Sequence record: PZ019085.1
Length of the DNA stretch: 64,000 nucleotides
Source of the DNA: a phage
Reading direction: 5' to 3' (one strand)
The notes beneath the pieces were generated by a model that was given only the letters and a program-made list of their open reading frames with translations, did no database searches and had not been told where the DNA came from. Shown piece by piece: positions 26,561 through 56,792 of the stretch (within the stretch, counting starts at the first letter, position 1; each line of letters opens with the position of its first letter). The position numbers were made by a program, and so were the translations under genes.

Positions 26561-26595
26561 TTTACAAACTCTTGAGAGCAGAGTATAATGCTCTC
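26561..26595 (+). promoter_or_regulatory. sigma70-like promoter inside an inverted repeat
   Basis: TTTACA, 17-bp spacer, TATAAT; palindrome GAGAGCAGAG-TATAAT-GCTCTC; near-identical copy at 56751-56792. Confidence 0.6.
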
Positions 26596-26606
26596 GTTGG
26601 ATAATA
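26565..26606 (+). repeat. 42-bp direct repeat, copy A
   Basis: CAAACTCTTGAGAGCAGAGTATAATGCTCTCGTTGGATAATAAA; 41/42 identical to 56751-56792. Confidence 0.8.
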
Positions 26607-26630
26607 AACCACCAATTGAAAGGTAATAAT

Positions 26631-27224
26631 ATGAACACACTGAAGAAACTTGTTGAATTCATCCGCACTAAACTGGGTACCGCTATGGCTAAAAATCTGA
26701 CTGTCGAAGAACAGTATAACGCAGCTGCAGATAAGTTGATTACCCAAATCAAAGAACTAAAAACGGCTTCTGTTAAATCTATTAATGAAGAAAAACGTAT
26801 TCGTGAACTTGTTAATGAAAAGAACAAACAAGCCGCTTCTAAGGAACGTGAAATTCGTAAGCTCCTGGCTGAAGGACAGGATGTTACCATGCATGCTAAG
26901 CTTGGTCTTCTGTATCGTCGAACTGCCGAACAACTTAATACAAAAGCTGACGGGTATGCCGCTATGCGAATTGAAATTGCTCGTAAGGTGGTTGAACTTG
27001 ACGATGCTCGTCAGAACCTGGCAATCAAACTCGAATACATTCGTGAAACTCGAGCAGCCAATGCCCTTGGTATCTCTACGGCTGATGATGTAATTGAAAT
27101 CGCTGCACTGACTAAGGTTGATATCGAAGACACTCTGACTCGTGTTGAAACGTTCAATGGCACTCCAGCTGGTGTCGAAACCACTTCTGCTGATGTACAA
27201 GAATATATTAACTCTTTGAAATAA
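26631..27224 (+). CDS. coiled-coil protein, hypothetical
   Basis: 197 aa from ATG 26631; largely helical, charged heptad-like sequence. Confidence 0.6.
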
Positions 27225-27232
27225 AATAATAC

Positions 27233-27254
27233 GGAGGACTCCGGTCCTCCTTTT
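27233..27254 (+). terminator. rho-independent terminator
   Basis: GGAGGAC-TCCG-GTCCTCC hairpin followed by TTTT. Confidence 0.6.
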
Positions 27255-27273
27255 GGATAATAAAGGAGTTAAC

Positions 27274-27870
27274 ATGCGAAACCAAAATAATGATATTGAC
27301 TCAATGTTCGAAGAGTTCCGAAATAAGGTAAATCCACCTACGTCTTTAGTTGATTCATTACGATATGTTGCAACTGGACGTAAATGGTACTGGTCGTCTT
27401 CTTATGAGACCACTGAATATGCAAATCGCCGAAAATCTTTATTAGCCCCAGGTATTATGATTCATGATATCGGAGCTATTGCTAAACTAGTTGCAGACCA
27501 TGATATTAGATTCACCGATTTCGTTGCTCCTACGTGGTCTGTTTGTTGTTTAAACACTGAATTGGAATATATCAGCGAACGCTCTGAAGATTATTATGGT
27601 TTTAGAGATAAGCTTCTGAGGTCTAATATGTTTTATATCGATACAGAAGTTCTAGTCGATAATAAAAAATATTACTTTACGTTAATCGTCGATTCTGAAA
27701 CTATGTATGAAGGCAAGCCCTTGCTTAAAAGAGTTGATGCTTTAAGTGCTATTGATGCGCTTTATGAAACCATGATTGTTAGTCCTAATTTCACTAACAA
27801 TTTAATCCTTGAGCAATTTATTATGGAATGTAGAGAATATGTCAAAGCCAACCCTGTACATGCCAATTAA
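27274..27870 (+). CDS. hypothetical protein
   Basis: 198 aa from ATG 27274 (SD AAAGGAG). Confidence 0.6.
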   Translation: MRNQNNDIDSMFEEFRNKVNPPTSLVDSLRYVATGRKWYWSSSYETTEYANRRKSLLAPGIMIHDIGAIAKLVADHDIRFTDFVAPTWSVCCLNTELEYISERSEDYYGFRDKLLRSNMFYIDTEVLVDNKKYYFTLIVDSETMYEGKPLLKRVDALSAIDALYETMIVSPNFTNNLILEQFIMECREYVKANPVHAN

Positions 27871-28234
27871 GCCCTGGGCATACGAATACAAACGTAAATT
27901 AATCCCAAACGAAGTACTATTTGGCCCTATTTTAGCTTTAGCATTTTTAATCTTTATGATTATAGGAGCTATTTTAGATTCCAATAAAGTTATATCGTCT
28001 GATGCAGCGTTTTCATTAATGTTCGTCGCACCACTTATTGTACCATTTTTATTAATGCCTATTAACTGGGTGGGATATTGGTACCAAGGCCGTCATCACA
28101 GAGCCCGATTAAGAGAATGGAAAGTTCAGTGCGCAAAAGCCCAAGCTCAGTATGATGAAGCTGTTAAAAAGTATGAATATGAAGAAGCTATGGAATTCGT
28201 TAAGGAAATAAGATGCAAAAGCCTCAGCTCTTAA
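27839..28234 (+). CDS. membrane protein, C-terminal EFVKEIRCK motif family
   Basis: 131 aa; two predicted TM helices; C-terminus EAMEFVKEIRCKSLSS related to the C-termini of ORFs 28213, 30721 and 31714; alternative start 27860. Confidence 0.55.
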   Translation: MSKPTLYMPIKPWAYEYKRKLIPNEVLFGPILALAFLIFMIIGAILDSNKVISSDAAFSLMFVAPLIVPFLLMPINWVGYWYQGRHHRARLREWKVQCAKAQAQYDEAVKKYEYEEAMEFVKEIRCKSLSS

Positions 28235-28572
28235 CCGTACGGCCTTCTCTTGGTGAGAACATTCTAATTTTTATTATGAGTATTGGCATGGGATTTGCCT
28301 TTGGATTAGTTGGATTTCTTATTGACGGCGTTGTGTTAGGATTTATAGGGAACACTGGTGGATTCACAGACCAATGGCAGGACTTACGGTATACCCAAGC
28401 CTTTGCATCCATCGCATCATTTTGTACTGTAGTCTATTTTTACTACGATTTTATAAACCATAACAAGAAAAATAAAAAGGTTTACGCTTCTCAAATGGTT
28501 AGTTATAATGAACTTCTAGCTAAACGTGAAAATGAAACAATCGAAAACTTTATTAAGGAATGTAGAAAATGA
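28213..28572 (+). CDS. membrane protein, C-terminal ENFIKECRK motif family
   Basis: 119 aa; TM helices FIMSIGMGFAFGLVGFLIDGVVLGFIG; C-terminus ...NETIENFIKECRK. Confidence 0.6.
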   Translation: MQKPQLLTVRPSLGENILIFIMSIGMGFAFGLVGFLIDGVVLGFIGNTGGFTDQWQDLRYTQAFASIASFCTVVYFYYDFINHNKKNKKVYASQMVSYNELLAKRENETIENFIKECRK

Positions 28573-28874
28573 GTAAGATTATTGAAATTAAAGTACCAGA
28601 GTTTAATGATGCCAAATCCGCTTCAGATGCAATTTATAAACTTCTGAATCAAGCTGAACGTATCGAAGAAGAAGCAACAAAGATCGCAGACCAATATGCC
28701 GTATCATTTTCTGTAGGTGATTATGGTAGCGGTCGTACTTATTATCCTAAGGGTGAAATCGTATCCCAGTGGATGAAAAATGAAATTGAAAATAATGGTG
28801 GCGATGTTAAGCGTGAAGGTAATGGTTACGTTATTACTGAAGGTGCTTGGGTTTCGTCTTCTGCGTTGTGCTAA
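28569..28874 (+). CDS. small protein, GWVSSSxxC paralog 1
   Basis: 101 aa ending ...EGAWVSSSALC; shares GDYGSGRTYYPKGE-like motif and C-terminus with the next two ORFs. Confidence 0.6.
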   Translation: MSKIIEIKVPEFNDAKSASDAIYKLLNQAERIEEEATKIADQYAVSFSVGDYGSGRTYYPKGEIVSQWMKNEIENNGGDVKREGNGYVITEGAWVSSSALC

Positions 28875-28883
28875 GGAATCATT

Positions 28884-29156
28884 ATGTCTAAAGAACAAAC
28901 CGAACTGGCCGAAGCTGTAGCAAAAATCTATGCAGCTATTGAGGCTGCCAAAGAAATTGCTGATAAACAAAACACAACATTCGATTTGTATCCAGCTTAT
29001 GGTATGGGTGGAACCTATCATTCACCCGGACAGCTTAAAGCCGATCTTGAACGTTGTACAAAAAACGGCTATGCTGAATGGGCCGACGTTTACCAATACG
29101 ACTACAACCTGAGCCTTGAAGATGGCGGTTGGGTTGCATCTTCTCACACTTGCTAA
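28884..29156 (+). CDS. small protein, GWVSSSxxC paralog 2
   Basis: 90 aa ending ...DGGWVASSHTC; internal YGMGGTYHSPGQ. Confidence 0.6.
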   Translation: MSKEQTELAEAVAKIYAAIEAAKEIADKQNTTFDLYPAYGMGGTYHSPGQLKADLERCTKNGYAEWADVYQYDYNLSLEDGGWVASSHTC

Positions 29157-29165
29157 GGAAACAAT

Positions 29166-29363
29166 ATGTCTCGTGAATTAGATTGTGCTGTACGTACCGC
29201 AGTAGCTGCCCTGGAAAACCTGTTCCAAATTGCAACAGAAGAACGCGAAGAAGTTACATTGTGGATTGAAGATAACGCAGGTCTGAATCTCCAGAACGCG
29301 ATCTCATTATCCAACAATAGTATCACTGTTCAAGGCTGGGTATCATCTAGTTATTCTTGCTAA
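29166..29363 (+). CDS. small protein, GWVSSSxxC paralog 3
   Basis: 65 aa ending ...VQGWVSSSYSC. Confidence 0.55.
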   Translation: MSRELDCAVRTAVAALENLFQIATEEREEVTLWIEDNAGLNLQNAISLSNNSITVQGWVSSSYSC

Positions 29364-29367
29364 AACA

Positions 29368-29406
29368 GTTTACAACAAGATAGGGCTATGTTATAGTAGT
29401 CCTATC
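29368..29406 (+). promoter_or_regulatory. early promoter with inverted repeat (PeSL-like cassette)
   Basis: GTTTACAACAAGATAGGGCTATGTTATAGTAGTCCTATC; about 90% identical to the copy at 22607. Confidence 0.55.
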
Positions 29407-29425
29407 AAATTAAACGGAGTCCACA

Positions 29426-29665
29426 ATGATTTATTACGAAAGTATTGGAACCGAAGTGGTTGCTAAAACCATTACTCGTGAAAAGTTTGCAAAGATATTC
29501 GATATGCGTTATAAAAAATCTGAACACAAAGGCATCCGATTTGAAGATGCACACTGCACAATTTGCCCTTATAATGAAGACATAAACGGTACAATCGTTC
29601 CATTGGTAGAGGCTTCACATGATGACCTCTGGGATGAATATGATATCGCATGTCGTGAAATTTAA
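29426..29665 (+). CDS. hypothetical protein
   Basis: 79-aa ORF; Cys/His pair ...HCTICPYNED... Confidence 0.55.
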   Translation: MIYYESIGTEVVAKTITREKFAKIFDMRYKKSEHKGIRFEDAHCTICPYNEDINGTIVPLVEASHDDLWDEYDIACREI

Positions 29666-29693
29666 GTTAATGAATTAATCCGAGGAAAATATT

Positions 29694-30650
29694 ATGATGT
29701 TAGTTATTGGTTCTCGTGCACTTCACTATCATGGTCTTATTGATTCTAGCGCTATCAAAAATAGCGATTGGGACTTTATTGCGGACCAAGGTTCTTGGAA
29801 TGCATTCAAAAATCAAATGATGGGTGTATATGTTCACCAAGATAACCCTGATGTCCAAGTTTTCAAATGCTTCCATAATGGACGCGAAACTCATTTTGAA
29901 GCATATATTGTTCCGGCAATCACTAATGTCCGTGAATTAGTCGGTGAACTCACTCCTGAAGATTTCACGTCTTCTTATGACCTTTTAAAATACGCCAAGA
30001 AAAATTTGACTAAAGATCGTTTGACCGGGTTTTACTGGGCAACTCCTGAGATATGTCTTGCAATTAAAATGTCTCATCGTTTCAAGAAAAATAATCCATT
30101 CTTTTTAAAGACTATGAACCATATTCAGTATCTTCGTGGTAAAGGTGTTACACTGAACGATGAACTTACTGAAATTATGCTGAAACGCCAGAAAGAAACC
30201 TTGAATTATGCTCACCCAGTTCTTGACACTTCTAAAAGTGCGTTCTTTAAAGATGACATCTATACATATGACCATGATACTATTCATGAAGCCATTGCAC
30301 TAACAGACCGCCCAGCGTATACATTTTATATGAAAGATGGTTCTGAAGTCATGACCTCACGCGAGAAGTTCGAATCATTACCGGAAATGGTCAAATTGGC
30401 CGGTGTATACGAAGAATCATGTGTACTAGCGTTAGAACGTTCTCAGATTCCTAATGACTTTAAAATTAACCCTGAAGCCAGTTTTATGATGGCATTGGAA
30501 AAAGTCTGTACAAGCATCACCTCTGGTTGGTTCCGTGAATACGCCTGGGAAAACTACAGCAAAGTAGTAAGTATGTACCAAAGCTTAGGACATGATGATT
30601 ACGTTAAACGTTTCAAACAAAATTTCCATATGGTAAAACCTTTCAAATAA
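29694..30650 (+). CDS. putative nucleotidyltransferase-fold protein
   Basis: 318 aa; N-terminal hhhGS...x14...SDWDF (MMLVIGSRALHYHG...NSDWDFIA) resembles the Pol-beta superfamily GS / DxD active-site pattern; remainder helical. Confidence 0.5.
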   Translation: MMLVIGSRALHYHGLIDSSAIKNSDWDFIADQGSWNAFKNQMMGVYVHQDNPDVQVFKCFHNGRETHFEAYIVPAITNVRELVGELTPEDFTSSYDLLKYAKKNLTKDRLTGFYWATPEICLAIKMSHRFKKNNPFFLKTMNHIQYLRGKGVTLNDELTEIMLKRQKETLNYAHPVLDTSKSAFFKDDIYTYDHDTIHEAIALTDRPAYTFYMKDGSEVMTSREKFESLPEMVKLAGVYEESCVLALERSQIPNDFKINPEASFMMALEKVCTSITSGWFREYAWENYSKVVSMYQSLGHDDYVKRFKQNFHMVKPFK

Positions 30651-30662
30651 TTTCGCAAAACT

Positions 30663-30700
30663 GTTTACACAATTATAGGACTATGTTATAGTAGTCCTAT
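30663..30700 (+). promoter_or_regulatory. early promoter with inverted repeat (PeSL-like cassette)
   Basis: GTTTACACAATTATAGGACTATGTTATAGTAGTCCTAT. Confidence 0.55.
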
Positions 30701-30720
30701 TAAAACATGAGGAGAATATT

Positions 30721-31026
30721 ATGAAATTAACAGAAACCAATCTAATCGGTCTTTTAACAATATTTGCATCACCTTTTTACGCAGCCCTTTCTGTTGCAGT
30801 ATTACAAAAGGCTTACGATATGGATGGTGTTCCTGGTTTTGTATTCTTATCACCATTTTTATTATTCGTCGGAGCATTGTTATTATATGCCACGACTAGT
30901 TTCGACCATAACGTCTGGGTCAATTATAAATGCAAATTGTCTGAAGAAGAACACGCAGAAGCTCGTAAAAAAGCTATTGAATCTACCAATCTAGAAAATT
31001 TCATTAAAGAATGTCGAGGAAAATAA
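30721..31026 (+). CDS. membrane protein, C-terminal ENFIKECRGK motif family
   Basis: 101 aa; two TM helices; C-terminus ...ESTNLENFIKECRGK. Confidence 0.6.
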   Translation: MKLTETNLIGLLTIFASPFYAALSVAVLQKAYDMDGVPGFVFLSPFLLFVGALLLYATTSFDHNVWVNYKCKLSEEEHAEARKKAIESTNLENFIKECRGK

Positions 31027-31027
31027 T

Positions 31028-31714
31028 ATGAATAGTTCTAAAGTGTTTAATAGCCAAGCTCGTGCAGTAGGTGGTTTTGCTGGTAAAATTTCTAATGATA
31101 AAATCAAAAACGAAACTATGTTCTTCAACAGCTCATTGGCTTTCGCTTTTGATAATGGTGGCCCAATTACTCGTAGCTTCATCATGAACTTGCCGGATGA
31201 TTGGAACACTGACCAGGTTGTATTTGATTCACGAGTCCACATGCTGATGCCTGGTTGGTATCCTGCTATTCCTGGATATCACCATGATGACGTACCACGT
31301 CCTGATATTCCAGTTGGTCAACACTTTATTACTGCAGGACAACCTGATTATGACAATCCTCGTTACCATTCTGAACATATTCTTGGTCTTGTTAACGCTG
31401 ATGTGTGTCCTACTCATTTTGCAACAGGAACTGCAGAGTTCAGTCAGATTCCTGATGGCGAACTTATCTATCGTCAGTGGCACAAAGAAGTCCTCGAAAA
31501 AATTGAAAAAGGTGAACTAGAGAAATGGGAAGCTCCAGATCGTACTCTTCTTCAGTTTGATTGGCAAACATGGCACACTGGTTCTCGTGCAATTAGTAAT
31601 GGATGGCGTTGGTTCGGACGTGTATCTCGTAATACAGACCGAGTTAAAAAGATTACCAATGAAATTCGTGTCAATGCCCAAGTTTATCTGGAATTCCCTA
31701 TGGAAGGCTGGTAA
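31028..31714 (+). CDS. hypothetical protein with His/Asp-rich motifs
   Basis: 228 aa; GWYPAIPGYHHDD and CPTHFATG motifs, Trp-rich C-terminus; no family recognised. Confidence 0.6.
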   Translation: MNSSKVFNSQARAVGGFAGKISNDKIKNETMFFNSSLAFAFDNGGPITRSFIMNLPDDWNTDQVVFDSRVHMLMPGWYPAIPGYHHDDVPRPDIPVGQHFITAGQPDYDNPRYHSEHILGLVNADVCPTHFATGTAEFSQIPDGELIYRQWHKEVLEKIEKGELEKWEAPDRTLLQFDWQTWHTGSRAISNGWRWFGRVSRNTDRVKKITNEIRVNAQVYLEFPMEGW

Positions 31715-32205
31715 TGATTAACAAAACATATTGGTCTAATATAGACGATGACAATGAAGGTATTTCATACTATTCAGTAGATTGGACAGGATGTCCATCC
31801 TACTTAGTGAAAAATATTTGCCAAGAATTTAAAATCGACCAGCCAGCAGGTATTATCGTGAACAGATACATTAATGGATATCAACCTATCGATGAAGTAA
31901 TACGAACAACTCAAGCTGAGCTTGAAAAGTTTTTCAATAAGTGCCAATGGATAACAGGATGGATTATATTTGTACCGTCTATATGGTTTTTCAGCACTAA
32001 GGTGAGTTCTTTCGGTTTTGTTGATATTATTGCTATCTTATTAGCATCTAGTATCATAAGTGTTGTTGGTGGCATCATTGGTGGCGGTACTGCAGCCATC
32101 ATTATTAATCTTGTTAAAAGTAGTTTACAGGAACGTAAAGACAAGATAAAGGCCAAGAATAATGAAGTTGAACGTTTTATTACCGAATGCAGGAATTTGA
32201 GATGA
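31714..32205 (+). CDS. membrane protein, C-terminal ERFITECR motif family
   Basis: 163 aa; TM segments WIIFVPSIWFF and IIAILLASSIISVVGGIIGGGTAAIII; C-terminus ...NNEVERFITECRNLR. Confidence 0.6.
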   Translation: MINKTYWSNIDDDNEGISYYSVDWTGCPSYLVKNICQEFKIDQPAGIIVNRYINGYQPIDEVIRTTQAELEKFFNKCQWITGWIIFVPSIWFFSTKVSSFGFVDIIAILLASSIISVVGGIIGGGTAAIIINLVKSSLQERKDKIKAKNNEVERFITECRNLR

Positions 32206-32438
32206 GTATAGCAATTTACATTAAATCAGAATCATGTGATTCTTATCTGTATTCCTATGATACCGGAACGTCAGAAGAGAAAATCAAAGAAGATTTAGAA
32301 AGCGACTTGGATATGTTCCGACCTATTTCTGATTATATGGTCCAAATATCTGATAGTGAAAGTCCGTCAACAGAAACATGTGTTGAACTTATTATACAAG
32401 ATATCTTTAAACAATCATGGGACCGAGATGATGAGTAA
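32202..32438 (+). CDS. hypothetical acidic protein
   Basis: 78 aa from ATG 32202 (SD AGGA); overlaps the nudE start; alternative start 32187. Confidence 0.5.
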   Translation: MSIAIYIKSESCDSYLYSYDTGTSEEKIKEDLESDLDMFRPISDYMVQISDSESPSTETCVELIIQDIFKQSWDRDDE

Positions 32439-32886
32439 GAAAAATAAAGTGAAAGAACTATCAGCCGGTATTATTTTCCTTACCGAAGATAAAGAATTAT
32501 TCATGGGGCGTGTAACTGGTTCTCGTCCTAAAGGTTCTTTAGCTCATCGGTGGGATATTCCTAAAGGTCGTGTCGAGCCCGGTGAATCTCCTATCGAAGC
32601 CGCTATTCGTGAATGCGAAGAAGAAACTGGGTTTACACAATATGACCCTGCCTTCCTGAAAGACCTAGGTGAACATCATTACTCAGACAATAAGAATATT
32701 CATCTGTTCCTATATACCATCCCTGTAGAGCACGAGCAATTCAGAAACAGTGTTTGTAATTCCTATCATACATTCCCAGACGGACGACAGATTCCTGAAT
32801 TTGATGCATTCGCTTTAATTAAACCTTCTCAATGGGAGTATGTAATGGGCAAATCATTATATAAGGTGCTCACTACCCTCCTATAA
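32428..32886 (+). CDS. nudE: Nudix hydrolase (T4 NudE / e.1-like)
   Basis: 152 aa from MMSKK; Nudix box GRVEPGESPIEAAIRECEEETGF; immediately upstream of e as in T4. Confidence 0.85.
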   Translation: MMSKKNKVKELSAGIIFLTEDKELFMGRVTGSRPKGSLAHRWDIPKGRVEPGESPIEAAIRECEEETGFTQYDPAFLKDLGEHHYSDNKNIHLFLYTIPVEHEQFRNSVCNSYHTFPDGRQIPEFDAFALIKPSQWEYVMGKSLYKVLTTLL

Positions 32887-32895
32887 GTAATAAAT

Positions 32896-32917
32896 ACCTC
32901 CTATAAACGTGGGAGGT
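32896..32917 (+). promoter_or_regulatory. SD-sequestering hairpin with late-promoter-like octamer in the loop, upstream of e
   Basis: ACCTCC-TATAAACGTG-GGAGGT: the 3' arm contains the lysozyme SD GGAGG; loop holds TATAAACG (6/8 match to TATAAATA); T4 gene e is known to be controlled this way. Confidence 0.45.
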
Positions 32918-45783: not shown

Positions 45784-45822
45784 GTTTACAAGGTCTATGG
45801 TTATGTTATTATAGACCTATCA
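45784..45822 (+). promoter_or_regulatory. early promoter with inverted repeat (PeSL-like cassette)
   Basis: GTTTAC then GGTCTATGGTTATGTTATTATAGACC palindrome. Confidence 0.55.
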
Positions 45823-46429: not shown

Positions 46430-47425
46430 ATGAGCATTACATCTGATGCGGTAAAACATGAAATTAACGGTTTATGTGCTTCACAGATTAAAGTGTGGTT
46501 TAAAGACCATAATGATCGCAGAGCACTTAATTATGAGCAAATTGCTATCCAAGTTCATCAATTACTGACTAGTAAATTTGATTTTCATATGCCATCTGAA
46601 ATCTATACTAATCTGCCGCGAGCACTTATTAAAGCGTGTAAAGGTTATGGAAAATCAATGGCCGATGGAATCTTCAGCGCGCTGAATAAACTTAACGTTC
46701 TGTCGATGATTAACTCTAACAATATCCTGCGTAATCTAGGACGTACTGATTTGTTCGGTCGTGAACAGTGTAAAATGCCTTTGAAATGGATTGTTGCTCA
46801 TCTTAACGAGAACCAAACACGTTTTCTGGCCGTATCAGCACGCTTACAAATGGGCCTAGATCGTCAGATGAACTTTAAAACTCATCCACGTTATTCAGGT
46901 TCAACAGACTTTTATAAATGTGAGCTTCAAAAGGTTGCAGGTAAAACTGTCTTGGTAGTTCGTGTAACGTTTGAAGGACGACGTCAAGGATATTTTGACC
47001 TAATCGGCTCTGGTCTCAAACATTGTGGATTTATCGACGAAGTTGATATCAAGCGAGACGGCACTGGATACCGTATTGGATATGTTTGCACTCTTAAAGA
47101 AGAGATTTCGGGACCAGCACCAGGACTAAAAGATGTTAGATATAAAGACGAGCTCGTTGAAGAAATAAAAGAAGTTGAATATGATATCAACCAAGAAGAT
47201 GCTCTTAAAGACCTTATTGACGAACTAAACCAAGACGTTATTCCGGTTCAGAAATTTGAATCAAAACATGCTGAGCAAATCAAATACTTTGAAGCTTTGA
47301 TTAACGAACTTAATGTAACTATTCAACAGACTGATGATGAAATCTCACGATTAGCAGGCTTAAATGGTAAAAATAAAACGGAACGAGCTAATCTTATTCA
47401 AGTAGTAAAACTTCTTAAGGAATGA
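46430..47425 (+). CDS. hypothetical protein with C-terminal coiled coil
   Basis: 331-aa ORF; Cys-containing N-terminal domain; acidic C-terminal heptad region ...EEIKEVEYDINQEDALKDLIDELNQ... Confidence 0.6.
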   Translation: MSITSDAVKHEINGLCASQIKVWFKDHNDRRALNYEQIAIQVHQLLTSKFDFHMPSEIYTNLPRALIKACKGYGKSMADGIFSALNKLNVLSMINSNNILRNLGRTDLFGREQCKMPLKWIVAHLNENQTRFLAVSARLQMGLDRQMNFKTHPRYSGSTDFYKCELQKVAGKTVLVVRVTFEGRRQGYFDLIGSGLKHCGFIDEVDIKRDGTGYRIGYVCTLKEEISGPAPGLKDVRYKDELVEEIKEVEYDINQEDALKDLIDELNQDVIPVQKFESKHAEQIKYFEALINELNVTIQQTDDEISRLAGLNGKNKTERANLIQVVKLLKE

Positions 47426-47454
47426 TGTACAACCAGGGATGGTTGGAGTATAAT
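47425..47454 (+). promoter_or_regulatory. sigma70-like promoter
   Basis: ATGTAC, 18-bp spacer, TATAAT; spacer motif GGATGGTTGGAGTATAAT repeated at 48438-48456. Confidence 0.5.
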
Positions 47455-47480
47455 AAATTTTTCAACATGAGGAATATAAA

Positions 47481-48455
47481 ATGGCTTTTATTACACGTAG
47501 AGAACTTATCAAAGAATTTACCTCGAACGCATATACCCCAGGACCTAATCCTATCCGTATGCCTGTAAAGACTCCTGAAGAGATTGAGGAAATCTGTTCA
47601 TATTATGGGATTAATTCTCGTATGTTTACTCAATTTGAATGCATTACTAACACACCCGTTAAAGAGTTCATTAAAAATGGTGAGTTCAGCCGTTTATTAG
47701 CCAAACAGAAACTTCGTAATTTTTGTATCGGCGGTGAAGGACAATATTTCGCTAAACAGTTCCGAAATAACCTTAACAATCTGATGGCCATTGCTTCTCG
47801 TATTCGTCCTCAAGCAATTAACATGAAACATTTGAAATATACTTACGATAAGTTAGAAATCATGGTTATCAGTGAGAACGAGTTCACTCTTACATATAAT
47901 CCTAAGAATGATAACGTTGCTCGTGTATTCCACCAAGCACTAGAAGTTTTAGGCGATAATATCCACCAGATTAAAGCGATTTATTCTCGTGAGCTTAATA
48001 TTATTGACCCTATCAAGAATAAGGGCAATATCGCTATCCAGGCTCGTGTATCTATTGGTAAAAAGGTTCCTGCGCCATGGTGGCACAAAGACTCTGAATA
48101 CTATCAAAATCTTAAAAAGGAAAATGCATTGTTTGAAGCATCGCTTACTGGGACCCCAATTGAACAGGCCGAAGTCCTAAGTGCTTATTCTACTTCGGGT
48201 AAATCAATGTTTAAAGGTTTGCCAAATGTGTGCAAACTGTCTGCAGTAAAACTAAATGTTTCTAATGACCTTCTTCCGGCCGAAGATTACCATTACAATC
48301 AAATCAAGGCCACTATGGACCAACTGTCTGTTGAACTTGACAAAGCACAAGCTAAGCTTCGTGATGCTCAAAGTGTTGTAACGAATCTCCAGTTGCAGTA
48401 TTCTAAACTTTTTAACGCAATGAATGCATTAAAATCATGGATGGTTGGAGTATAA
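47481..48455 (+). CDS. hypothetical protein with C-terminal coiled coil
   Basis: 324-aa ORF; C-terminus ...QLSVELDKAQAKLRDAQSVVTNLQLQYSKLFNAMNALKSW. Confidence 0.6.
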   Translation: MAFITRRELIKEFTSNAYTPGPNPIRMPVKTPEEIEEICSYYGINSRMFTQFECITNTPVKEFIKNGEFSRLLAKQKLRNFCIGGEGQYFAKQFRNNLNNLMAIASRIRPQAINMKHLKYTYDKLEIMVISENEFTLTYNPKNDNVARVFHQALEVLGDNIHQIKAIYSRELNIIDPIKNKGNIAIQARVSIGKKVPAPWWHKDSEYYQNLKKENALFEASLTGTPIEQAEVLSAYSTSGKSMFKGLPNVCKLSAVKLNVSNDLLPAEDYHYNQIKATMDQLSVELDKAQAKLRDAQSVVTNLQLQYSKLFNAMNALKSWMVGV

Positions 48456-48456
48456 T
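48427..48456 (+). promoter_or_regulatory. possible promoter inside the 3' end of the upstream gene
   Basis: GGATGGTTGGAGTATAAT, same motif as 47438-47454, overlapping the last codons of ORF 47481-48455. Confidence 0.4.
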
Positions 48457-48484
48457 GAATCTATCTTAACGAGAGGAAAATATT

Positions 48485-50409: not shown

Positions 50410-50762
50410 CATATTCATTAAATCTTAAAGATTTCCAAGATGTATACGAAGTTTGTGCCAATGAACTTGGTCCTGATGCTCCAACTATTATTGAAGTTTT
50501 AAATGTGCTCCCTTCATCATTAGCTTACGAAGCCAAATCATGGGGTTGGAACGACACTGTCGTTCGTGATGACCTTTACGTCCTGATGAACGATATGATG
50601 GTTAAAAAGTCAGAACCGGTTGCACCAATGGTTACCATTACCGTTGAAGAATATAATCGCCTGCAAGCCATTGAAGAGCTTCTGTGGAACATTGAATGTG
50701 ACCTGCCGTCAGGGCTAGAATCCTGGATTGATTATGAAGAGCTCAATAAACTCCGGGGTTAA
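50406..50762 (+). CDS. hypothetical protein (nrdC.1 position)
   Basis: 118-aa acidic ORF. Confidence 0.6.
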   Translation: MTYSLNLKDFQDVYEVCANELGPDAPTIIEVLNVLPSSLAYEAKSWGWNDTVVRDDLYVLMNDMMVKKSEPVAPMVTITVEEYNRLQAIEELLWNIECDLPSGLESWIDYEELNKLRG

Positions 50763-50811
50763 ACCGTGGTATTCTGCTCGATGGGAGACTGTCGAGCCAG
50801 ACGTCGAAACA

Positions 50812-50840
50812 GTTTACAACGACGAAGAAACGTGTTATGA
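50812..50840 (+). promoter_or_regulatory. sigma70-like early promoter
   Basis: GTTTAC, 17-bp spacer, TATGAT. Confidence 0.5.
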
Positions 50841-50890
50841 TGAACCTACAGTAAACGATATGATTGATTTAGAAATGGGAAGAGATTATT

Positions 50891-51058
50891 ATGCAAGTTA
50901 AATTGTTATACCGTTTATTAAAAAGTGGCGAACATGATTGGTATGTGTTGATTAAAACTGAACCAAATTTTTTCTCCGGACAACCATTTACGGTTCGTCC
51001 TACTAAACGTCAGCTTCGCAAAGCTAAACGTTCTCATCGTAACTTTTATAGAGAATAA
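50891..51058 (+). CDS. 55-aa basic small protein
   Basis: MQVKLLYRLLKSGEHDWYVLIKTEPNFFSGQPFTVRPTKRQLRKAKRSHRNFYRE; SD GAGATTATT weak; below ORF-track cutoff. Confidence 0.4.
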   Translation: MQVKLLYRLLKSGEHDWYVLIKTEPNFFSGQPFTVRPTKRQLRKAKRSHRNFYRE

Positions 51059-51063
51059 TTGAT

Positions 51064-51489
51064 ATGAATATTTCTGAAACTCGCGGTAAATGGTTCAAGA
51101 TTGTTAAAGAAGATGAAGAACTACAAGACAAGTTTCCTGAATTAAAGAAAGATACGATCATCAAGGTAATTGGTACTACTACCGAAGATGGTTATGGCGA
51201 CCATGGCATTATCGAAGTGATGTTGAACACAGGTGAGAAACTTTGCATCTATGACCGTGATACTTCTCTTTGGTGCTTCTGGGAATCCCATTCAATAGAT
51301 GAACTCGAAGAAATTGATTCGGCTGATATTGCAGATGTGCTAGGTAGTAAACTTGGTGAATTCGAAGGTGAACGAATTTCTTATGCATTAGCTAAATTAG
51401 CCGGACAAGAAAATAACGACGGCTATGAAGGTAACCTGATGCAAGCAGCCGCAGAATACATTGAATATTTAGAAAGACGTTTAAGTTAA
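51064..51489 (+). CDS. hypothetical acidic protein (T4 pin position)
   Basis: 141-aa ORF immediately upstream of gene 49, where T4 carries pin; no sequence-level confirmation. Confidence 0.55.
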   Translation: MNISETRGKWFKIVKEDEELQDKFPELKKDTIIKVIGTTTEDGYGDHGIIEVMLNTGEKLCIYDRDTSLWCFWESHSIDELEEIDSADIADVLGSKLGEFEGERISYALAKLAGQENNDGYEGNLMQAAAEYIEYLERRLS

Positions 51490-51494
51490 TAAAT

Positions 51495-51519
51495 ACCCTT
51501 ATCTATTTAAGGTAAGGGT
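51495..51519 (+). promoter_or_regulatory. stem-loop upstream of gene 49
   Basis: ACCCTTA-(11 nt)-TAAGGGT inverted repeat 6 nt before the gene 49 ATG. Confidence 0.35.
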
Positions 51520-51524
51520 TTATC

Positions 51525-51998
51525 ATGTTATTATCAGGCGCAAAATATAAAGAAGAAAAACAAAAATTTTATGACGCACAGAACGGTAAGTGTCCTATTT
51601 GCCACCGCGAATTAGACCCTGATGTTCAAGGTAACCATCTTGACCACGACCATGAATTAAACGGGCCAAAAGCCGGTAGAGTTCGTGGATTACTCTGTAA
51701 TCTGTGCAACGCAGCAGAAGGTCAAATGAAGCATAAGTTCAACCGTTCTGGTCTTAAAGGCCGTGATGTCAACTACCTAGAATGGCTTGAATCTCTTCTT
51801 GATTATTTGAAACAAGATTATTCTGATAATAATATCCATCCTAATTTTGTTCCAGACAAAACTAAAGAGTTCTCAAGACTAGGTAAAGATGAAATGATGG
51901 CTGAGATGCTTCAAAGAGGATTTGAATATAATGAATCTGACACTAAAACACAGTTAATAGCTTCATTCAAAAAGCAGCTTAGAAAGAGTTTAAAATGA
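51525..51998 (+). CDS. 49: endonuclease VII (Holliday junction resolvase)
   Basis: 157 aa MLLSGAKYKEEKQKFYDAQNGKCPICHRELDP...; near-collinear with T4 endo VII as recalled. Confidence 0.95.
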   Translation: MLLSGAKYKEEKQKFYDAQNGKCPICHRELDPDVQGNHLDHDHELNGPKAGRVRGLLCNLCNAAEGQMKHKFNRSGLKGRDVNYLEWLESLLDYLKQDYSDNNIHPNFVPDKTKEFSRLGKDEMMAEMLQRGFEYNESDTKTQLIASFKKQLRKSLK

Positions 51999-53812
51999 AA
52001 ATTGAAAAAGAAATTGAAGGATTAATTCATAAAACTAATAAAGATCTTTTGAACGAGAATGCTAATAAAGATTCTCGTGTTTTTCCAACTCAACGGGACC
52101 TTATGGCTGGTATTGTGTCTAAACACATTGCCAAAAATATGGTCCCGTCTTTTATTATGAAAGCGCATGAAAGCGGAATTATCCATTTCCACGATATTGA
52201 TTATTCCCCTGCTCTTCCATTTACTAATTGCTGTTTAGTAGATTTAAAAGGGATGCTTGAGAATGGATTTAAGCTTGGTAATGCGCAGATTGAAACTCCT
52301 AAATCAATCGGTGTTGCTACTGCAATTATGGCACAAATTACTGCACAGGTTGCTTCTCATCAATATGGTGGAACGACTTTTGCGAATGTAGATAAAGTAC
52401 TTTCTCCTTATGTTAAACGCACCTATGCAAAACATATCGAGGATGCAGAAAAATGGCAAATCGCCGATGCACCGAATTATGCTCAATCTAAAACAGAAAA
52501 AGACGTATACGATGCATTCCAAGCTTATGAATATGAAGTAAATACTCTCTTTAGTTCAAACGGGCAAACGCCTTTTGTAACAATTACATTTGGCACGGGA
52601 ACTGACTGGACTGAACGAATGATTCAGAAAGCAATTCTGAAAAATCGTATTAAAGGTCTTGGTCGTGATGGAATAACTCCTATTTTCCCTAAGCTTGTTA
52701 TGTTCGTCGAAGAAGGTGTTAATCTTTACAAAGACGATCCGAACTATGATATTAAGCAGCTTGCTCTAGAGTGCGCAAGCAAAAGGATGTATCCTGACAT
52801 TATTTCGGTTAAGAATAATAAAGCTATTACTGGTTCTTCAATTCCAGTTTCTCCAATGGGTTGCCGTAGTTTCTTGGGCGTATGGAAAGATTCGACTGGT
52901 AATGAAATTCTTGATGGACGTAATAATCTTGGTGTTGTAACGCTGAATCTTCCTCGAATTGCGTTAGATTCTTATATTGGAACACAATTTAACGAACAGA
53001 AATTTATTGAATTATTCAATGAACGTATGGATTTGTGTTTTGAAGCTTTGATGTGTAGAATTAGTTCTTTAAAAGGAGTTAAAGCAACTGTTGCTCCTAT
53101 TCTTTACCAAGAAGGTGCATTCGGGGTTCGTCTTAAACCGGATGATGATATAATTGAGTTATTTAAAAACGGTAGAAGTTCAGTGTCTTTGGGATACATT
53201 GGTATTCACGAATTGAATATTCTTGTCGGTCGTGATATTGGACAAGAAATTTTAACTAAAATGAATGCTCGTCTTAAGCAGTGGACCGAAAGAACCGGTT
53301 TTGCTTTTAGCTTGTATTCTACTCCTGCTGAAAACCTTTGCTATCGCTTCTGTAAACTTGATACTGAAAAATATGGAAGTGTAAAAGATGTTACTGATAA
53401 AGGATGGTACACTAATAGTTTCCATGTTTCAGTAGAAGAAAATATTACTCCGTTTGAAAAGATTTCTCGCGAAGCGCCATATCATTTCATTGCGACAGGC
53501 GGTCACATTTCTTATGTTGAACTTCCTGATATGAAAAATAACCTAAAAGGTCTTGAGGCTGTCTGGGATTATGCTGCACAACATTTAGATTATTTTGGTG
53601 TTAATATGCCAGTAGATAAATGTTTTACGTGTGGAAGTACCCATGAAATGACTCCGACTGAAAACGGATTTGTTTGTTCAGTTTGTGGAGAAACTGATCC
53701 TAAAAAGATGAACACAATAAGAAGAACATGCGGCTATTTGGGAAATCCGAACGAACGCGGATTTAATCTCGGTAAAAATAAAGAAATAATGCATAGGGTT
53801 AAACACCAATGA
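51995..53812 (+). CDS. nrdD: anaerobic ribonucleoside-triphosphate reductase
   Basis: 605 aa; C-terminal glycyl-radical motif RRTCGYLG and Cys cluster CFTCGS...CSVCG; uninterrupted ORF. Confidence 0.95.
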   Translation: MKIEKEIEGLIHKTNKDLLNENANKDSRVFPTQRDLMAGIVSKHIAKNMVPSFIMKAHESGIIHFHDIDYSPALPFTNCCLVDLKGMLENGFKLGNAQIETPKSIGVATAIMAQITAQVASHQYGGTTFANVDKVLSPYVKRTYAKHIEDAEKWQIADAPNYAQSKTEKDVYDAFQAYEYEVNTLFSSNGQTPFVTITFGTGTDWTERMIQKAILKNRIKGLGRDGITPIFPKLVMFVEEGVNLYKDDPNYDIKQLALECASKRMYPDIISVKNNKAITGSSIPVSPMGCRSFLGVWKDSTGNEILDGRNNLGVVTLNLPRIALDSYIGTQFNEQKFIELFNERMDLCFEALMCRISSLKGVKATVAPILYQEGAFGVRLKPDDDIIELFKNGRSSVSLGYIGIHELNILVGRDIGQEILTKMNARLKQWTERTGFAFSLYSTPAENLCYRFCKLDTEKYGSVKDVTDKGWYTNSFHVSVEENITPFEKISREAPYHFIATGGHISYVELPDMKNNLKGLEAVWDYAAQHLDYFGVNMPVDKCFTCGSTHEMTPTENGFVCSVCGETDPKKMNTIRRTCGYLGNPNERGFNLGKNKEIMHRVKHQ

Positions 53813-54279
53813 ATTATGATAGATTTTATCCTTGCGATTTTGTGAATGGCCCTGGTTGCAGGGTCGTTCTTTTCGTTACAGGTTGTTTGCATAAATGCGA
53901 AGGGTGTTATAATAAATCAACATGGAATGCTAGAAATGGTATTCCATTCACTAGTGAAACACTAGAACAATTAATTGAATGTTTGAATAATGATTATATA
54001 GAAGGATTAACTATAACTGGAGGAGACCCTCTTTATCCTGATAACAGAGACGTTATTCACTCTGTGATTCAAACTATTAAAAATCTTTATCCCAATAAAA
54101 GCATTTGGTTGTGGACAGGATATAAGTTTGAAGATATTAAACAACTAGAAATGCTTAAATATGTTGATGTTATTATTGATGGTAAGTATGAGAAAAATCT
54201 TCCGACCAAAAAGTTGTGGCGAGGATCAGATAATCAGCGACTTTGGTCAAATACCGATGGGGTGTGGAAACATGATTAA
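53809..54279 (+). CDS. nrdG: anaerobic RNR activating enzyme (radical SAM)
   Basis: 156 aa; CxxxCxxC-type cluster GCLHKCEGCYN. Confidence 0.9.
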   Translation: MNYDRFYPCDFVNGPGCRVVLFVTGCLHKCEGCYNKSTWNARNGIPFTSETLEQLIECLNNDYIEGLTITGGDPLYPDNRDVIHSVIQTIKNLYPNKSIWLWTGYKFEDIKQLEMLKYVDVIIDGKYEKNLPTKKLWRGSDNQRLWSNTDGVWKHD

Positions 54280-54393
54280 ATTGAATTATATTATGGATAC
54301 TATAAATGATATGATTTTTCATTTTGGTCCAGAATTTTATTCACAGTGTAGTTTAGTGCTTATCAATGCTTGGTTAACCAATTAAGGGTAAAT

Positions 54394-54609
54394 ATGTATA
54401 AATTTCGTAAAGGTTTAGCTGATTTTCTTACAACTGTAACGTTCTTTTTGTTTATGGCAGTTGGAGCTATTTTTCTTATTCCTTTTACTGTTGTATTTTT
54501 CGTGATTAGTTTAATTTCTCCAGAAAAAGGACTATCTTCTAGCGAGTTTAATGAACGCCTGGATAAAATTACTAATAAGTTGAATGATGTTCTTGATAAA
54601 AAGGCTTAA
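54394..54609 (+). CDS. small membrane protein, hypothetical
   Basis: 71 aa from ATG 54394 (SD AAGGG); TM FFLFMAVGAIFLIPFTVVFFVISLI. Confidence 0.55.
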   Translation: MYKFRKGLADFLTTVTFFLFMAVGAIFLIPFTVVFFVISLISPEKGLSSSEFNERLDKITNKLNDVLDKKA

Positions 54610-54611
54610 TT

Positions 54612-54923
54612 ATGATTAGTTTTGAGCGGTATGTGGTAGAGAGTTGGAAGGGGTTTGATATGTTCGGTAATGACTATTATTTTTACGAATGTAGTCTAAA
54701 TCCTAGTTTTTGGGCTGGACGTGAACGAGATCTCGAAGAAATTAATGCTCGTGCCGAATTGTTAGGTGAACTGCCTACGGTTTATTTTACCTTTGACGCG
54801 TCTGGATTTGTTATCCAGGTTTATTTTCCTGAAGAAAACTCTGGTGAGGATTCTGTTAATCCTCCTTATTGGGCTTATCAAGGAATTATTTCTCGTGGAA
54901 CAAAACTCGAACTTAAAGAATAA
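54612..54923 (+). CDS. hypothetical protein
   Basis: 103-aa ORF. Confidence 0.6.
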   Translation: MISFERYVVESWKGFDMFGNDYYFYECSLNPSFWAGRERDLEEINARAELLGELPTVYFTFDASGFVIQVYFPEENSGEDSVNPPYWAYQGIISRGTKLELKE

Positions 54924-55218
54924 GATTGAAATTTATGGCATCCCTGAAGAAGTAGGACGTTGTCCAGGATGTTATACTGTTACAAAACTTTTAAAGGAAC
55001 TCAATGCTCCTTATACATTTTATAAAGTCCTCACTAATAATGGTAAGATTGAATATGACCGTCCTTTAATCGTATCTCTTGCTAAACGTGCAGGATTCAC
55101 TTCACTTAATATTCGTTATCCTGTCATATTTTTAAATGGTAAGAAACAAAAGAATATTGCAGAGTTTAAAAAGTCCTTGATTTCATTAGGATACGACTCT
55201 GATATCATAGAAGATTGA
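54895..55218 (+). CDS. nrdH: glutaredoxin-like protein (NrdH position)
   Basis: CPGC redox motif and thioredoxin-fold-like length; start uncertain: no in-frame ATG upstream of the CPGC, so GTG 54895 (SD AGGA) is assumed. Confidence 0.55.
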   Translation: MEQNSNLKNKIEIYGIPEEVGRCPGCYTVTKLLKELNAPYTFYKVLTNNGKIEYDRPLIVSLAKRAGFTSLNIRYPVIFLNGKKQKNIAEFKKSLISLGYDSDIIED

Positions 55219-55243
55219 CCAGGTGCCGCCTGGTCTTCTTTAT
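55217..55243 (+). terminator. rho-independent terminator
   Basis: GACCAGG-TGCCG-CCTGGTC hairpin followed by TTCTTTAT. Confidence 0.6.
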
Positions 55244-55326
55244 CTCATTTCTAATATAATCCATTGGAATCTTCACTTCACTATCTCCTTGTGCCCCTCT
55301 CAAATCAAAAATATTTTCATAAAACA

Positions 55327-55370
55327 GTTTACATCCTCAATAGATGTGTTAAGATTAAACCATCTACTAT
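55327..55370 (+). promoter_or_regulatory. early promoter with inverted repeat (PeSL-like cassette)
   Basis: GTTTAC then TAGATGTGTTAAGATTAAACCATCTACTATAG. Confidence 0.5.
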
Positions 55371-55383
55371 AGAGGAAAATAAA

Positions 55384-55566
55384 ATGACAATTGAAGATAA
55401 AGAAATTAAGGTCGACCAGTACTATTCTGTCAACGGTAATGCAGTACAGATAACCAGAGTTTCAAGCCTGGATGTTTGGTACCGTTCAATCAAATATCCA
55501 GAAATTGGTGAAATGCTTTGTGACCGTGGTATCTTCTGTTCAATTGCGAAGGAAATTAAGTCATGA
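55384..55566 (+). CDS. hypothetical protein
   Basis: 60 aa from ATG 55384 (SD AGAGGAAA). Confidence 0.5.
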   Translation: MTIEDKEIKVDQYYSVNGNAVQITRVSSLDVWYRSIKYPEIGEMLCDRGIFCSIAKEIKS

Positions 55567-55811
55567 TTAGTTTAGATTCAAAGAAAGTTGTTCTAACCCT
55601 TAAAGTTAATGACGAGCGACTGGTATTCATTACCATTTCCGATTTACATGTTGAAATTGCTAATGGCGTCCGTACTTATCAAACGACTAAAACACAATGG
55701 GATTATATCCCGATGTTGACGTTCACTCAGCGTTTAGAATCAATCGGTCTCAAAGACCTTTCAGTAAGTGAAGTGAATTTTATCAAACGTGTCGTATCAA
55801 TCAACCTCTGA
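55563..55811 (+). CDS. hypothetical protein
   Basis: 82-aa ORF. Confidence 0.55.
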   Translation: MISLDSKKVVLTLKVNDERLVFITISDLHVEIANGVRTYQTTKTQWDYIPMLTFTQRLESIGLKDLSVSEVNFIKRVVSINL

Positions 55812-55818
55812 GGTACTT

Positions 55819-56112
55819 ATGGGTAAAACATATCGTCGTAAAGATTTGAAAGTTCGCGATTACGACTATTTTGGTAAGCGTAAAGCTCCTGACGGTGTTA
55901 GCCACAAAGATATGGTTGAAAACATTTTCCGCTCAGATAAATGGAAACGTATGAAAGGCGTTGATTCTGAAGTCAAGAATGAAATGAATCGACAACTCCG
56001 CAAAGAAGTTCGTAAGTTGAAAAAAGATGTTTACAGTAAAGAAGATTATGATTATAATACTTCTCATATTGAAGCCAAACGTAAAGCTAACGAATGTTAT
56101 CGTTACAGTTGA
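55819..56112 (+). CDS. basic small protein, hypothetical
   Basis: 97 aa from ATG 55819 (SD GAGG); Lys/Arg-rich. Confidence 0.55.
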   Translation: MGKTYRRKDLKVRDYDYFGKRKAPDGVSHKDMVENIFRSDKWKRMKGVDSEVKNEMNRQLRKEVRKLKKDVYSKEDYDYNTSHIEAKRKANECYRYS

Positions 56113-56119
56113 GGAAATT

Positions 56120-56254
56120 ATGAATATCAAACGAATGCTTTTTAAGCAGGGATTATATACTTTAAATGTTAATCCAAAGGGTGATACAACTAAATGGTCT
56201 GTAAATGACTGGATTAAGTTCATCGATGAAAATGGGACGTGGAACACAAAATGA
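56120..56254 (+). CDS. 44-aa small protein
   Basis: MNIKRMLFKQGLYTLNVNPKGDTTKWSVNDWIKFIDENGTWNTK; SD GAGGAAA. Confidence 0.45.
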   Translation: MNIKRMLFKQGLYTLNVNPKGDTTKWSVNDWIKFIDENGTWNTK

Positions 56255-56451
56255 ATCCTGAAAATATTGTGTCATGGCAACTTCGTGAAGAACGTGCCGA
56301 ATTCTTTGCCAATATGAAACTCAACGGTGTTGAGGATGAAGACTTTTTACGCTGGTTCTGGATTTACAAATACAAAGAATGCCAACATGCTGTGCTATTG
56401 ACTTGCGCAATTATGTACGAAGGCTGGAAAGGCGCTAAAAAGTTCGGTTAA
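56251..56451 (+). CDS. hypothetical protein
   Basis: 66 aa from ATG 56251. Confidence 0.5.
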   Translation: MNPENIVSWQLREERAEFFANMKLNGVEDEDFLRWFWIYKYKECQHAVLLTCAIMYEGWKGAKKFG

Positions 56452-56453
56452 TA

Positions 56454-56490
56454 GTTTATGATGGTAGGAAGATAACACTTCTTCCTACCA
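56454..56490 (+). promoter_or_regulatory. early promoter with inverted repeat (PeSL-like cassette)
   Basis: GTTTAT then GGTAGGAAGATAACACTTCTTCCTACC palindrome. Confidence 0.5.
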
Positions 56491-56506
56491 ATTTGAGGAG
56501 AATACC

Positions 56507-56746
56507 ATGGAACAAGAATTAGACATTATTACATCGAAAAAACGTCTTGAAGTCGTAGTGAATGGCTCAACTATTAAGTTTGTATATGACACTTTAACTG
56601 ATGCTATTACTGTTAGTTGCGGTGGAAAGGCTTTTAGTCTAGATTCTACTGAAAACAAATACCCGTTCTATAAAGGTATCTTTGATATGGGTGTTGATAT
56701 CAGTGTTCGCCAAGCAAACTATTTACATTATCTTATCACGAAATAA
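56507..56746 (+). CDS. hypothetical protein
   Basis: 79-aa ORF (SD GAGGAG). Confidence 0.6.
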   Translation: MEQELDIITSKKRLEVVVNGSTIKFVYDTLTDAITVSCGGKAFSLDSTENKYPFYKGIFDMGVDISVRQANYLHYLITK

Positions 56747-56750
56747 CGCA

Positions 56751-56792
56751 CAAACTCTTGAGAGCAGAGTATAATGCTCTCATTGGATAATA
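56751..56792 (+). repeat. 42-bp direct repeat, copy B (promoter-in-palindrome)
   Basis: CAAACTCTTGAGAGCAGAGTATAATGCTCTCATTGGATAATAAA; 41/42 identical to 26565-26606; contains TATAAT at 56770-56775. Confidence 0.8.

Follow-up and report, generated by a model that had tools for sequence, protein, structure and literature searches.

The window analysed here is a 64,000-nt stretch of phage DNA (record PZ019085.1) from a T4-type phage, 95-99% identical to Mosigvirus genomes such as AV116, TH12, ATK47 and G53. Two copies of a 44-nt repeat were located on its + strand, differing at a single position (G26596 in copy 1, A56782 in copy 2; coordinates in Table 1). Copy 1 lies between a frd.3-like open reading frame (ORF) and an e.6-like gene, and copy 2 between a 79-aa ORF and a 55.2-like gene, with the late sigma factor gene 55 about 900 bp downstream of the copy 2 region. 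Both copies are intergenic, lie on the early-gene strand and are followed by a Shine-Dalgarno (SD) sequence and an ATG. Each contains the inverted repeat GAGAGCA/TGCTCTC, with arms of 7 bp and an 8-nt loop, and a TATAAT, of which the first five bases belong to the loop while the final T opens the 3' arm. We consider each copy to be, probably, a cassette of the promoter-early stem-loop (PeSL) type in a T4-type Mosigvirus, in which an early promoter of the host sigma-70 type is joined to a short stem-loop.

A sequence-only reading of the window had described a 42-bp repeat with one mismatch at two loci. The repeat and the mismatch were confirmed; the length was corrected to 44 nt, since the ends given in that reading (26606 and 56792) fell two bases short and the string quoted there was itself 44 nt. 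The TATAAT within the palindrome was found in both copies, as described. No third copy with three or fewer mismatches was present anywhere in the window, and none of 100 dinucleotide-preserving shuffles gave any repeat match. Weaker similarity reached upstream of the repeat, to 65 nt at 86% identity (26544-26608 versus 56730-56794). In both copies a stop codon stands directly 5' of the -35 hexamer position (26558-26560 and 56744-56746), the upstream 21 nt are rich in A+T (86% for copy 1 and 76% for copy 2), and the downstream ATG lies 35 nt (copy 1) or 31 nt (copy 2) past the predicted start with the SD in between. The genes that follow are unrelated, again in agreement with the earlier reading: BLASTP gave no alignment between the two proteins, and their PHROG families differ.

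Copy 1 carries a near-consensus promoter, with TTTACA and TATAAT separated by 17 bp (11/12 to consensus), and the ATK47 annotation lists a host-type promoter at the homologous site. Copy 2 was not called as a promoter, having only the -10 with CGCACA at the -35 position. The description of the repeat as a promoter element with a palindrome inside it was supported, with the correction that a -35 hexamer is present in copy 1 only. Comparison with related phages indicates that the -35 of copy 2 was destroyed by insertion of the cassette that carries the 79-aa ORF. Folded as RNA, the hairpin of copy 1 gave a free energy (dG) of -12.6 kcal/mol (z -3.2 versus shuffles) and that of copy 2 gave -13.8 kcal/mol (z -3.5). 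The ORF finder started the 55.2-like ORF at an ATG at 56774, inside the -10/3' arm; the ATG at 56813, which has an SD before it, is probably the real start.

The same architecture was found at other promoters of the window. A -35-anchored scan combined with folding yielded about 18 T4-type early promoters on the + strand, of the form (G)TTTAC-N16-17-TAnnnT with A-rich DNA upstream; a strict promoter scan missed those with TACTAT or TAAGAT as the -10. A hairpin was scored as strong when the 40 nt after the -35 folded at -12 kcal/mol or better. Such a hairpin, extending from the spacer to about +1, was present in 8 of the 18 early promoters versus 1.8% of background 40-mers (binomial P = 3e-10). 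The arm sequences are unrelated between hairpin promoters (e.g., GATAGGACTA/TAGTCCTATC, AGGATGAT/ATCATCCT and AGGTCTAT/ATAGACCT) and the register is similar: the spacer holds the 5' arm, the loop takes in most of the -10, and the 3' arm runs from about -8/-7 to about the start site. A further hairpin with TATAAT in its loop (GATGTGGT-TATAAT-GACCACATC) was seen at 62451-62475, upstream of an SD and ATG and with a poor -35.

Homologs of the element were detected by BLAST in 753 phage records, in up to four places per Mosigvirus genome and in one place in T4-like (Tequatrovirus) genomes; homologous elements precede the early genes motB in T4 and ndd in Mosigvirus. For the Mosigvirus and Dhakavirus genomes, the number of matching records ranged from 232 to 777 with the query used. 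The element upstream of motB in T4T reads GTTTACAAACTCTTG-GGACC-AGAGTATAAT-GGTCC-C and has two compensatory pair changes compared to the window. Covariation was measured on instances from a scan of IMG/VR, in which only CAAACTCTTG-N5-AGAGTATAAT was fixed and the 3' arm was left unconstrained, together with fetched loci (38 instances from T-even phages, 35 of them distinct as 80-nt sequences). Pairing of the stem was kept in 245 of 245 cells (7 pairs in the 35 distinct instances), and two-sided changes were observed at three of the seven pairs, A-U/G-C at positions 2 and 4 and G-C/C-G/U-A at position 5. The covariation score was 0.433, versus 0.209 ± 0.018 for shuffled sets, none of which reached it in 500, and no slid register scored above 0.194. 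Among the homologs there are at least seven different 5' arms, each matched by a complementary 3' arm, and G53-type Mosigviruses carry a C-G to A-T change at a fourth pair (position 6). Every non-Watson-Crick pair was G·U or U·G when read on the + strand, and no A·C was seen. Since a symmetric duplex site would be expected to show both G·U and A·C, the exclusive G·U favours a single-stranded hairpin of the sense strand. The data provide good, if not overwhelming, grounds to suggest that the 7-bp stem is selected as a sense-strand structure, either RNA or non-template DNA, and not as a sequence recognised by a protein.

Gain and loss of small ORFs was observed at both loci. In L011, a metagenomic contig collinear with the window, locus 1 carries about 290 extra bases between frd.3 and the element. 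These comprise a degenerate promoter-like sequence (TGCACAAAC...TATGAT) and an ORF of about 82 aa, after which come GTGTACAAACTCTTGAGAGC... and e.6; on both sides of this insert L011 matches what the window has around the -35 of copy 1. At locus 2, synteny is kept in JS98-like (Dhakavirus) contigs, and the element, with an intact GTTTACA, directly follows a 66-aa ORF ending ...YEGWKGAK... The same empty site, with ATTTACA intact and the element directly after the 66-aa ORF, was found in the Mosigvirus AV118. In the window and in TH12 a cassette of about 294 bp is present at the -35, between TAGTTTA and CAAACTC, and contains a -35-like GTTTAT, a different 10-bp hairpin without a -10, an SD and the 79-aa ORF. 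The cassette of G53 has diverged from these (about 80% identity overall); its left promoter-hairpin is complete and its right element reads GTATACA... This diverged allele occurs at locus 2 in at least 26 Mosigvirus records, and G53, the one checked, has the standard allele at locus 1. Elsewhere, the element and its upstream flank are shared by JS98-like and VR-like contigs whose downstream ORFs differ. Judged by these comparisons, both copies lie at presence/absence polymorphisms of small-ORF cassettes among relatives. The sequence GCACAAAC stands in place of the -35 both at copy 2 (CGCACAAAC, 56747-56755) and, in L011, at the degenerate element on the left side of the additional ORF (TGCACAAACgcc, L011:13983-13991), and may represent a shared recombinant or decayed -35 allele.

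The distant copies also appear to have evolved in concert. The complete relative TH12 (MT446390.1) contains four copies in the same orientation, upstream of ndd (3954), a phrog_2364-like gene (33973), e.6 (99349) and 55.2 (128461). The GAGAGCA/TGCTCTC stem is common to the ndd, e.6 and 55.2 copies of Mosigvirus, which differ from one another at 1-7 of 45 aligned positions, and was seen in no other genus among those compared. Over the same 45 positions the two copies of the window differ at 2, while the Dhakavirus orthologs of the 55.2 copy differ from that of the window at 12-14. The fourth TH12 copy (33973), which is beyond the homologous span of the window, has the stem GGGAGCA/TGCTCCT and a CTCG spacer variant upstream of a gene starting MKTLLENY..., and matches its Dhakavirus ortholog (contig L033) in both stem and downstream gene. 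Because this copy keeps different arms, the lineage does not need GAGAGCA arms, which favours transfer between loci over lineage-specific selection. The comparison points to homogenisation of three of the four copies in the lineage by sequence transfer between loci, and the near-identity of the copies appears to be specific to this sub-lineage. A chimeric pattern was noted in the motB copy of the VR-like contig L013 (IMG/VR 2706795408), which has the stem of its own ndd copy (GGGGTCA/TGACCCC) and downstream sequence like the motB copies of related genomes (compared with L019 and L028); a short conversion tract or compensatory evolution is possible.

The sequence-only reading had also proposed that repeats of this kind can promote homologous recombination, deletion or the exchange of modules. 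Cassette polymorphism at both loci and concerted evolution of the paralogs bear out a role as recombination substrates or as markers of exchange, which corresponds to the published PeSL model (PMC2839356, PMC4122927). Indirect signs of recombination between copies are the closeness of the paralogs compared with the orthologs, the chimeric pattern in L013 and the half elements at the borders of cassettes. No deletion or inversion junction between the two copies was found in the relatives examined, and TH12 keeps the same 29-kb spacing. A fixed 30-kb deletion or inversion between the copies was considered and is not expected, as the repeats are direct and much of the phage genome lies between them.

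In the PeSL-type reading, each cassette would occupy 50-70 bp, bounded on one side by the stop codon of a small early gene and on the other by the ribosome-binding site of the gene that follows. RNA polymerase would start about 7 nt past TATAAT (about 26596 and about 56782), a position predicted from promoter geometry, just beyond the 3' arm. Because the start would lie past the 3' arm, the mRNA made from the promoter itself would lack the hairpin, and the hairpin would occur only in read-through RNA from the upstream gene. In that RNA its role may be to attenuate or terminate transcription, or to stabilise the 3' end, thereby insulating the cassette, as measured for the PeSLs of RB49. The shared sequence of about 45-65 bp would offer a homology patch to the very active T4-type recombination system, and such a patch would lead both to the near-identity of the copies, by gene conversion or copy transfer, and to insertion, deletion and replacement of neighbouring small ORFs.

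Several points weigh against this reading. For this phage, the position of the start, the strength of the promoter and the presence of 3' ends at the hairpin are predictions, and the literature searched for T4 5'/3'-end mapping yielded no data set that could be used. Copy 2 may have weak promoter activity or none. The hairpins resemble an intrinsic terminator in being short, stable and placed just past a stop codon; no terminator-like site was called at either copy, no T-run follows (the tails are GTTGGATAAT and ATTGGATAAT), and a canonical Rho-independent terminator is ruled out by the missing U-tract after both hairpins. Terminator activity has been measured for the G/C-rich stem-loop of RB49 and not for the T-even type (PMC2839356). 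A pure terminator role would not require the fixed register of hairpin and -10 across unrelated stems, which could reflect a promoter-level function. The independent substitutions behind the covariation are few, roughly 4-6 in a set of related phages. Selection, and not conversion, could in theory account for the concerted evolution, although the fourth copy argues otherwise.

The fixed register bears on the suggestion that the hairpin acts in DNA and is not an RNA element, with the non-template strand or a cruciform presenting the -10 in a single-stranded loop and thereby tuning the open complex, supercoiling sensitivity or early shut-off. We regard this as unlikely. The geometry is indeed fixed in unrelated stems (loop at about -15 to -8, 3' arm from about -7 to about +1), the wobble polarity of the sense strand fits non-template DNA as well as RNA, and stem-loop positions are looser in other T4-type phages (PMC2839356, PMC4122927), so that the overlap is not forced by a terminator role. 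However, tight intergenic packing can explain the overlap, about half of the early promoters in the window share the consensus and have no hairpin, and for a cruciform the antisense strand would have to fold as well, into a hairpin that in some variants contains A·C mismatches. No precedent for sigma-70 early promoters of T4 was found in the papers examined, and two T4 reviews (PMC2988021, PMC3014915) contain nothing on hairpins at early promoters. Little probability was likewise attached to the idea that the hairpin provides structure-dependent control from the sense strand (through the sigma-70 open complex or early shut-off) or a recombination signal, such as an entry site for a structure-specific nuclease that starts the gene conversion by which distant copies become homogenised. 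If this were true, the cassettes would be self-propagating promoter elements.

The sequence-only reading had suggested a shared regulator binding site, and an operator would be the corresponding mechanism: a dimeric phage or host protein would bind the duplex palindrome over the -10 and co-regulate both genes, for instance in early shut-off. The palindrome does overlap the -10, which is the classic place for a repressor, its copies within the genome are identical, and the shut-off mechanism of T4 early promoters is not completely understood (PMC3014915). The stem data nevertheless speak against a binding site, because arm sequences change freely and in a compensatory manner among homologous elements while pairing is always conserved. 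Other early promoters of the window have unrelated arms at the same position, and the fourth copy in the same lineage has different arms. In addition, wobbles that are only G·U in the sense strand would leave A·C mismatches in the antisense strand, which is unexpected for a symmetric duplex site. We therefore consider an operator very improbable. It is scarcely credible that the repeat is a plain, strong promoter conserved by promoter selection, with an incidental palindrome and no recombination role. T4 early promoters do have an extended consensus beyond -35 and -10 (PMC2988021), and the core is kept from genus to genus. Against this, selection on the stem is shown by its covariation, cassettes have been gained or lost at the junctions of both loci, paralogs resemble one another far more than orthologs do, and the identity of the spacer and start region over 44 nt exceeds what a promoter needs and is not shared by other promoters of the window.

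Table 1. Features at the two repeat loci and further promoter-hairpins; positions are those of the whole window.
Feature	Position	Strand	Basis or remark
frd.3-like ORF upstream of copy 1	26333-26560	+	ORF, ATK47 annotation
AT-rich upstream stretch, 18/21 bases A/T; includes frd.3-like stop (26558-26560)	26540..26560	+	Sequence, ORF, ATK47 annotation
-35 hexamer TTTACA, copy 1	26561..26566	+	11/12 match; fits T-even PeSL consensus TTTACW-N17-TAYWAT (PMC4122927)
Repeat copy 1, 44 nt	26565..26608	+	Last two -35 bases to about +13
Hairpin copy 1: GAGAGCA 26574-26580, loop GAGTATAA 26581-26588, TGCTCTC 26589-26595	26574..26595	+	Folding, covariation
-10 hexamer TATAAT, copy 1	26584..26589	+	Promoter scan
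Predicted start G, 7 nt past -10; also sole mismatch with copy 2	26596	+	Inferred from promoter geometry
e.6-like gene, 197 aa, phrog_1203; SD-like AAGG 26620-26623	26631..27224	+	Downstream of copy 1
'Half' element left of cassette: TAGTTTAT (-35-like), hairpin GGTAGGAAGA / loop TAACACT / TCTTCCTACC, no recognisable -10	56452..56489	+	dG -17.6
Polymorphic cassette at -35 of copy 2; own hairpin and 79-aa ORF	56459..56750	+	Absent from AV118, JS98-like phages
79-aa ORF, phrog_11314, ends just before copy 2	56507-56746	+	ORF
Degraded -35 position CGCACA, copy 2	56747..56752	+	Homologous site ATTTACA in Mosigvirus AV118, GTTTACA in JS98-like phages
Repeat copy 2, 44 nt	56751..56794	+	Sequence
Hairpin copy 2: arms 56760-56766 / 56775-56781, loop 56767-56774 (GAGTATAA)	56760..56781	+	Folding
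-10 TATAAT, copy 2; predicted +1 = A56782	56770-56775	+	Sequence, promoter geometry
55.2-like gene, 110 aa, phrog_1475; SD GAGGA 56801-56805	56813..57145	+	PP01 match annotated 55.2
Early promoter, hairpin over -10, arms AGGATGAT/ATCATCCT	22252..22287	+	
Early promoter-hairpin, arms GATAGGACTA/TAGTCCTATC	22607..22645	+	
Early promoter-hairpin	29368..29406	+	Same stem family
Early promoter-hairpin	30663..30700	+	Same stem family
Early promoter-hairpin, arms TTGGTAGGA/TCCTACCAA	41612..41652	+	
Early promoter-hairpin, arms AGGTCTAT/ATAGACCT	45784..45818	+	

Other features of the window were recorded. Directly after the e.6-like gene, at 27233-27250, the sequence GGAGGACTCCGGTCCTCC forms a hairpin resembling a bidirectional intrinsic terminator, with T-runs on both strands; the homologous site is annotated as a terminator in ATK47, in contrast to the promoter hairpins, which have no T-run. 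A second promoter-like repeat, ...GATGGTTGGAGTATAAT(A/G)AAT..., was found at 47417-47463 and 48419-48465 (79% over 47 nt, 1 kb apart, no hairpin) and again at 51911-51938 and 63095-63117; its first copy reads TGTACA-17-TATAAT. Six small ORFs, at 22316, 25004, 33406, 34166, 34490 and 34830, have very similar first codons, about 10 in number (MKTY[K/Q]EF[I/L]...), which suggests either that they are paralogs, members of one family of small early genes, or that they have a 5' module in common. Two tRNA genes are located at 24110-24181 and 24188-24261, and ATK47 is annotated with tRNA-Met, tRNA-Arg and the small RNA rnaC in its corresponding region. In an Rfam search of the window only these two tRNAs reached the gathering score, with no match at either repeat copy.

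If the PeSL-type reading is correct, the PeSL concept of an insulated expression unit that is also a recombination linker would apply to the RB69-like Mosigvirus group as well. The idea of a promoter that also serves recombination is already established by that concept, and the detail added here is modest. The Mosigvirus instance, the covariation of the stem and the concerted evolution between distant copies were not found in PMC2839356 or PMC4122927. The comparative evidence added is that compensatory stem changes with sense-strand polarity suggest selection of a structure and not of a binding sequence, and that homogenisation within the lineage of copies tens of kb apart suggests movement of sequence between elements. 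This may explain why small accessory ORFs differ between otherwise near-identical therapeutic coliphages. Copy 2 would be a natural -35 knock-out, for which AV118 and G53 offer isogenic-like comparators in the study of hairpin function.

Among known systems, integron attC sites and lambdoid morons similarly mark the boundaries of small mobile cassettes; morons have their own promoter and terminator, and attC sites are single-stranded hairpins. The repeat differs from both in that no dedicated integrase is known or was seen here and the element itself is the promoter. The T4 motB early promoter (T4T record 7130-7205; L002:1205-1260) is closer, being a homologous GTTTACAAACTCTTG-stem-AGAGTATAAT-stem with the same spacing and loop; it differs in its stem (GGGACCA/TGGTCCC, which contains the two compensatory pair changes), in its locus and in its downstream gene.

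PeSLs were described in RB49 and phi1 (Arbiol et al. 2010, PMC2839356). In them an AT-rich region is followed by the -35, the stem-loop lies between the promoter boxes or covers them, and an SD and an ATG come last. In RB49/phi1, lacZ fusions demonstrated both promoter and terminator activity, recombination between copies gave mini-circles, and cassette exchange was proposed to go through general homologous recombination (PMC2839356). T4/PST and nt-1/KVP40 were added to the class later, with the T-even consensus TTTACW-N17-TAYWAT and with 'degraded half PeSLs' near indels (Comeau et al. 2014, PMC4122927). The stem is GAGAGCA/TGCTCTC here and GGGG/CCCC in RB49, and activity and mini-circles are known from RB49/phi1, whereas the elements described here are known from their sequence. 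The layout is the same, from the AT-rich region and -35 through a stem-loop at or over the -10 to the SD and ATG. Copy 1 fits the T-even consensus, copy 2 corresponds to a 'degraded' PeSL as defined in PMC4122927, and 'half' elements without a -35 or -10 also occur. The neighbours of the copies are small ORFs of unknown function, close relatives differ there by cassette indels, and the recombination substrate proposed is likewise a homology patch of 50-100 bp. Taken together, all of the features that define a PeSL at the sequence level, namely the promoter, the stem-loop, the flanks and the variable small-ORF setting, are present at these loci.

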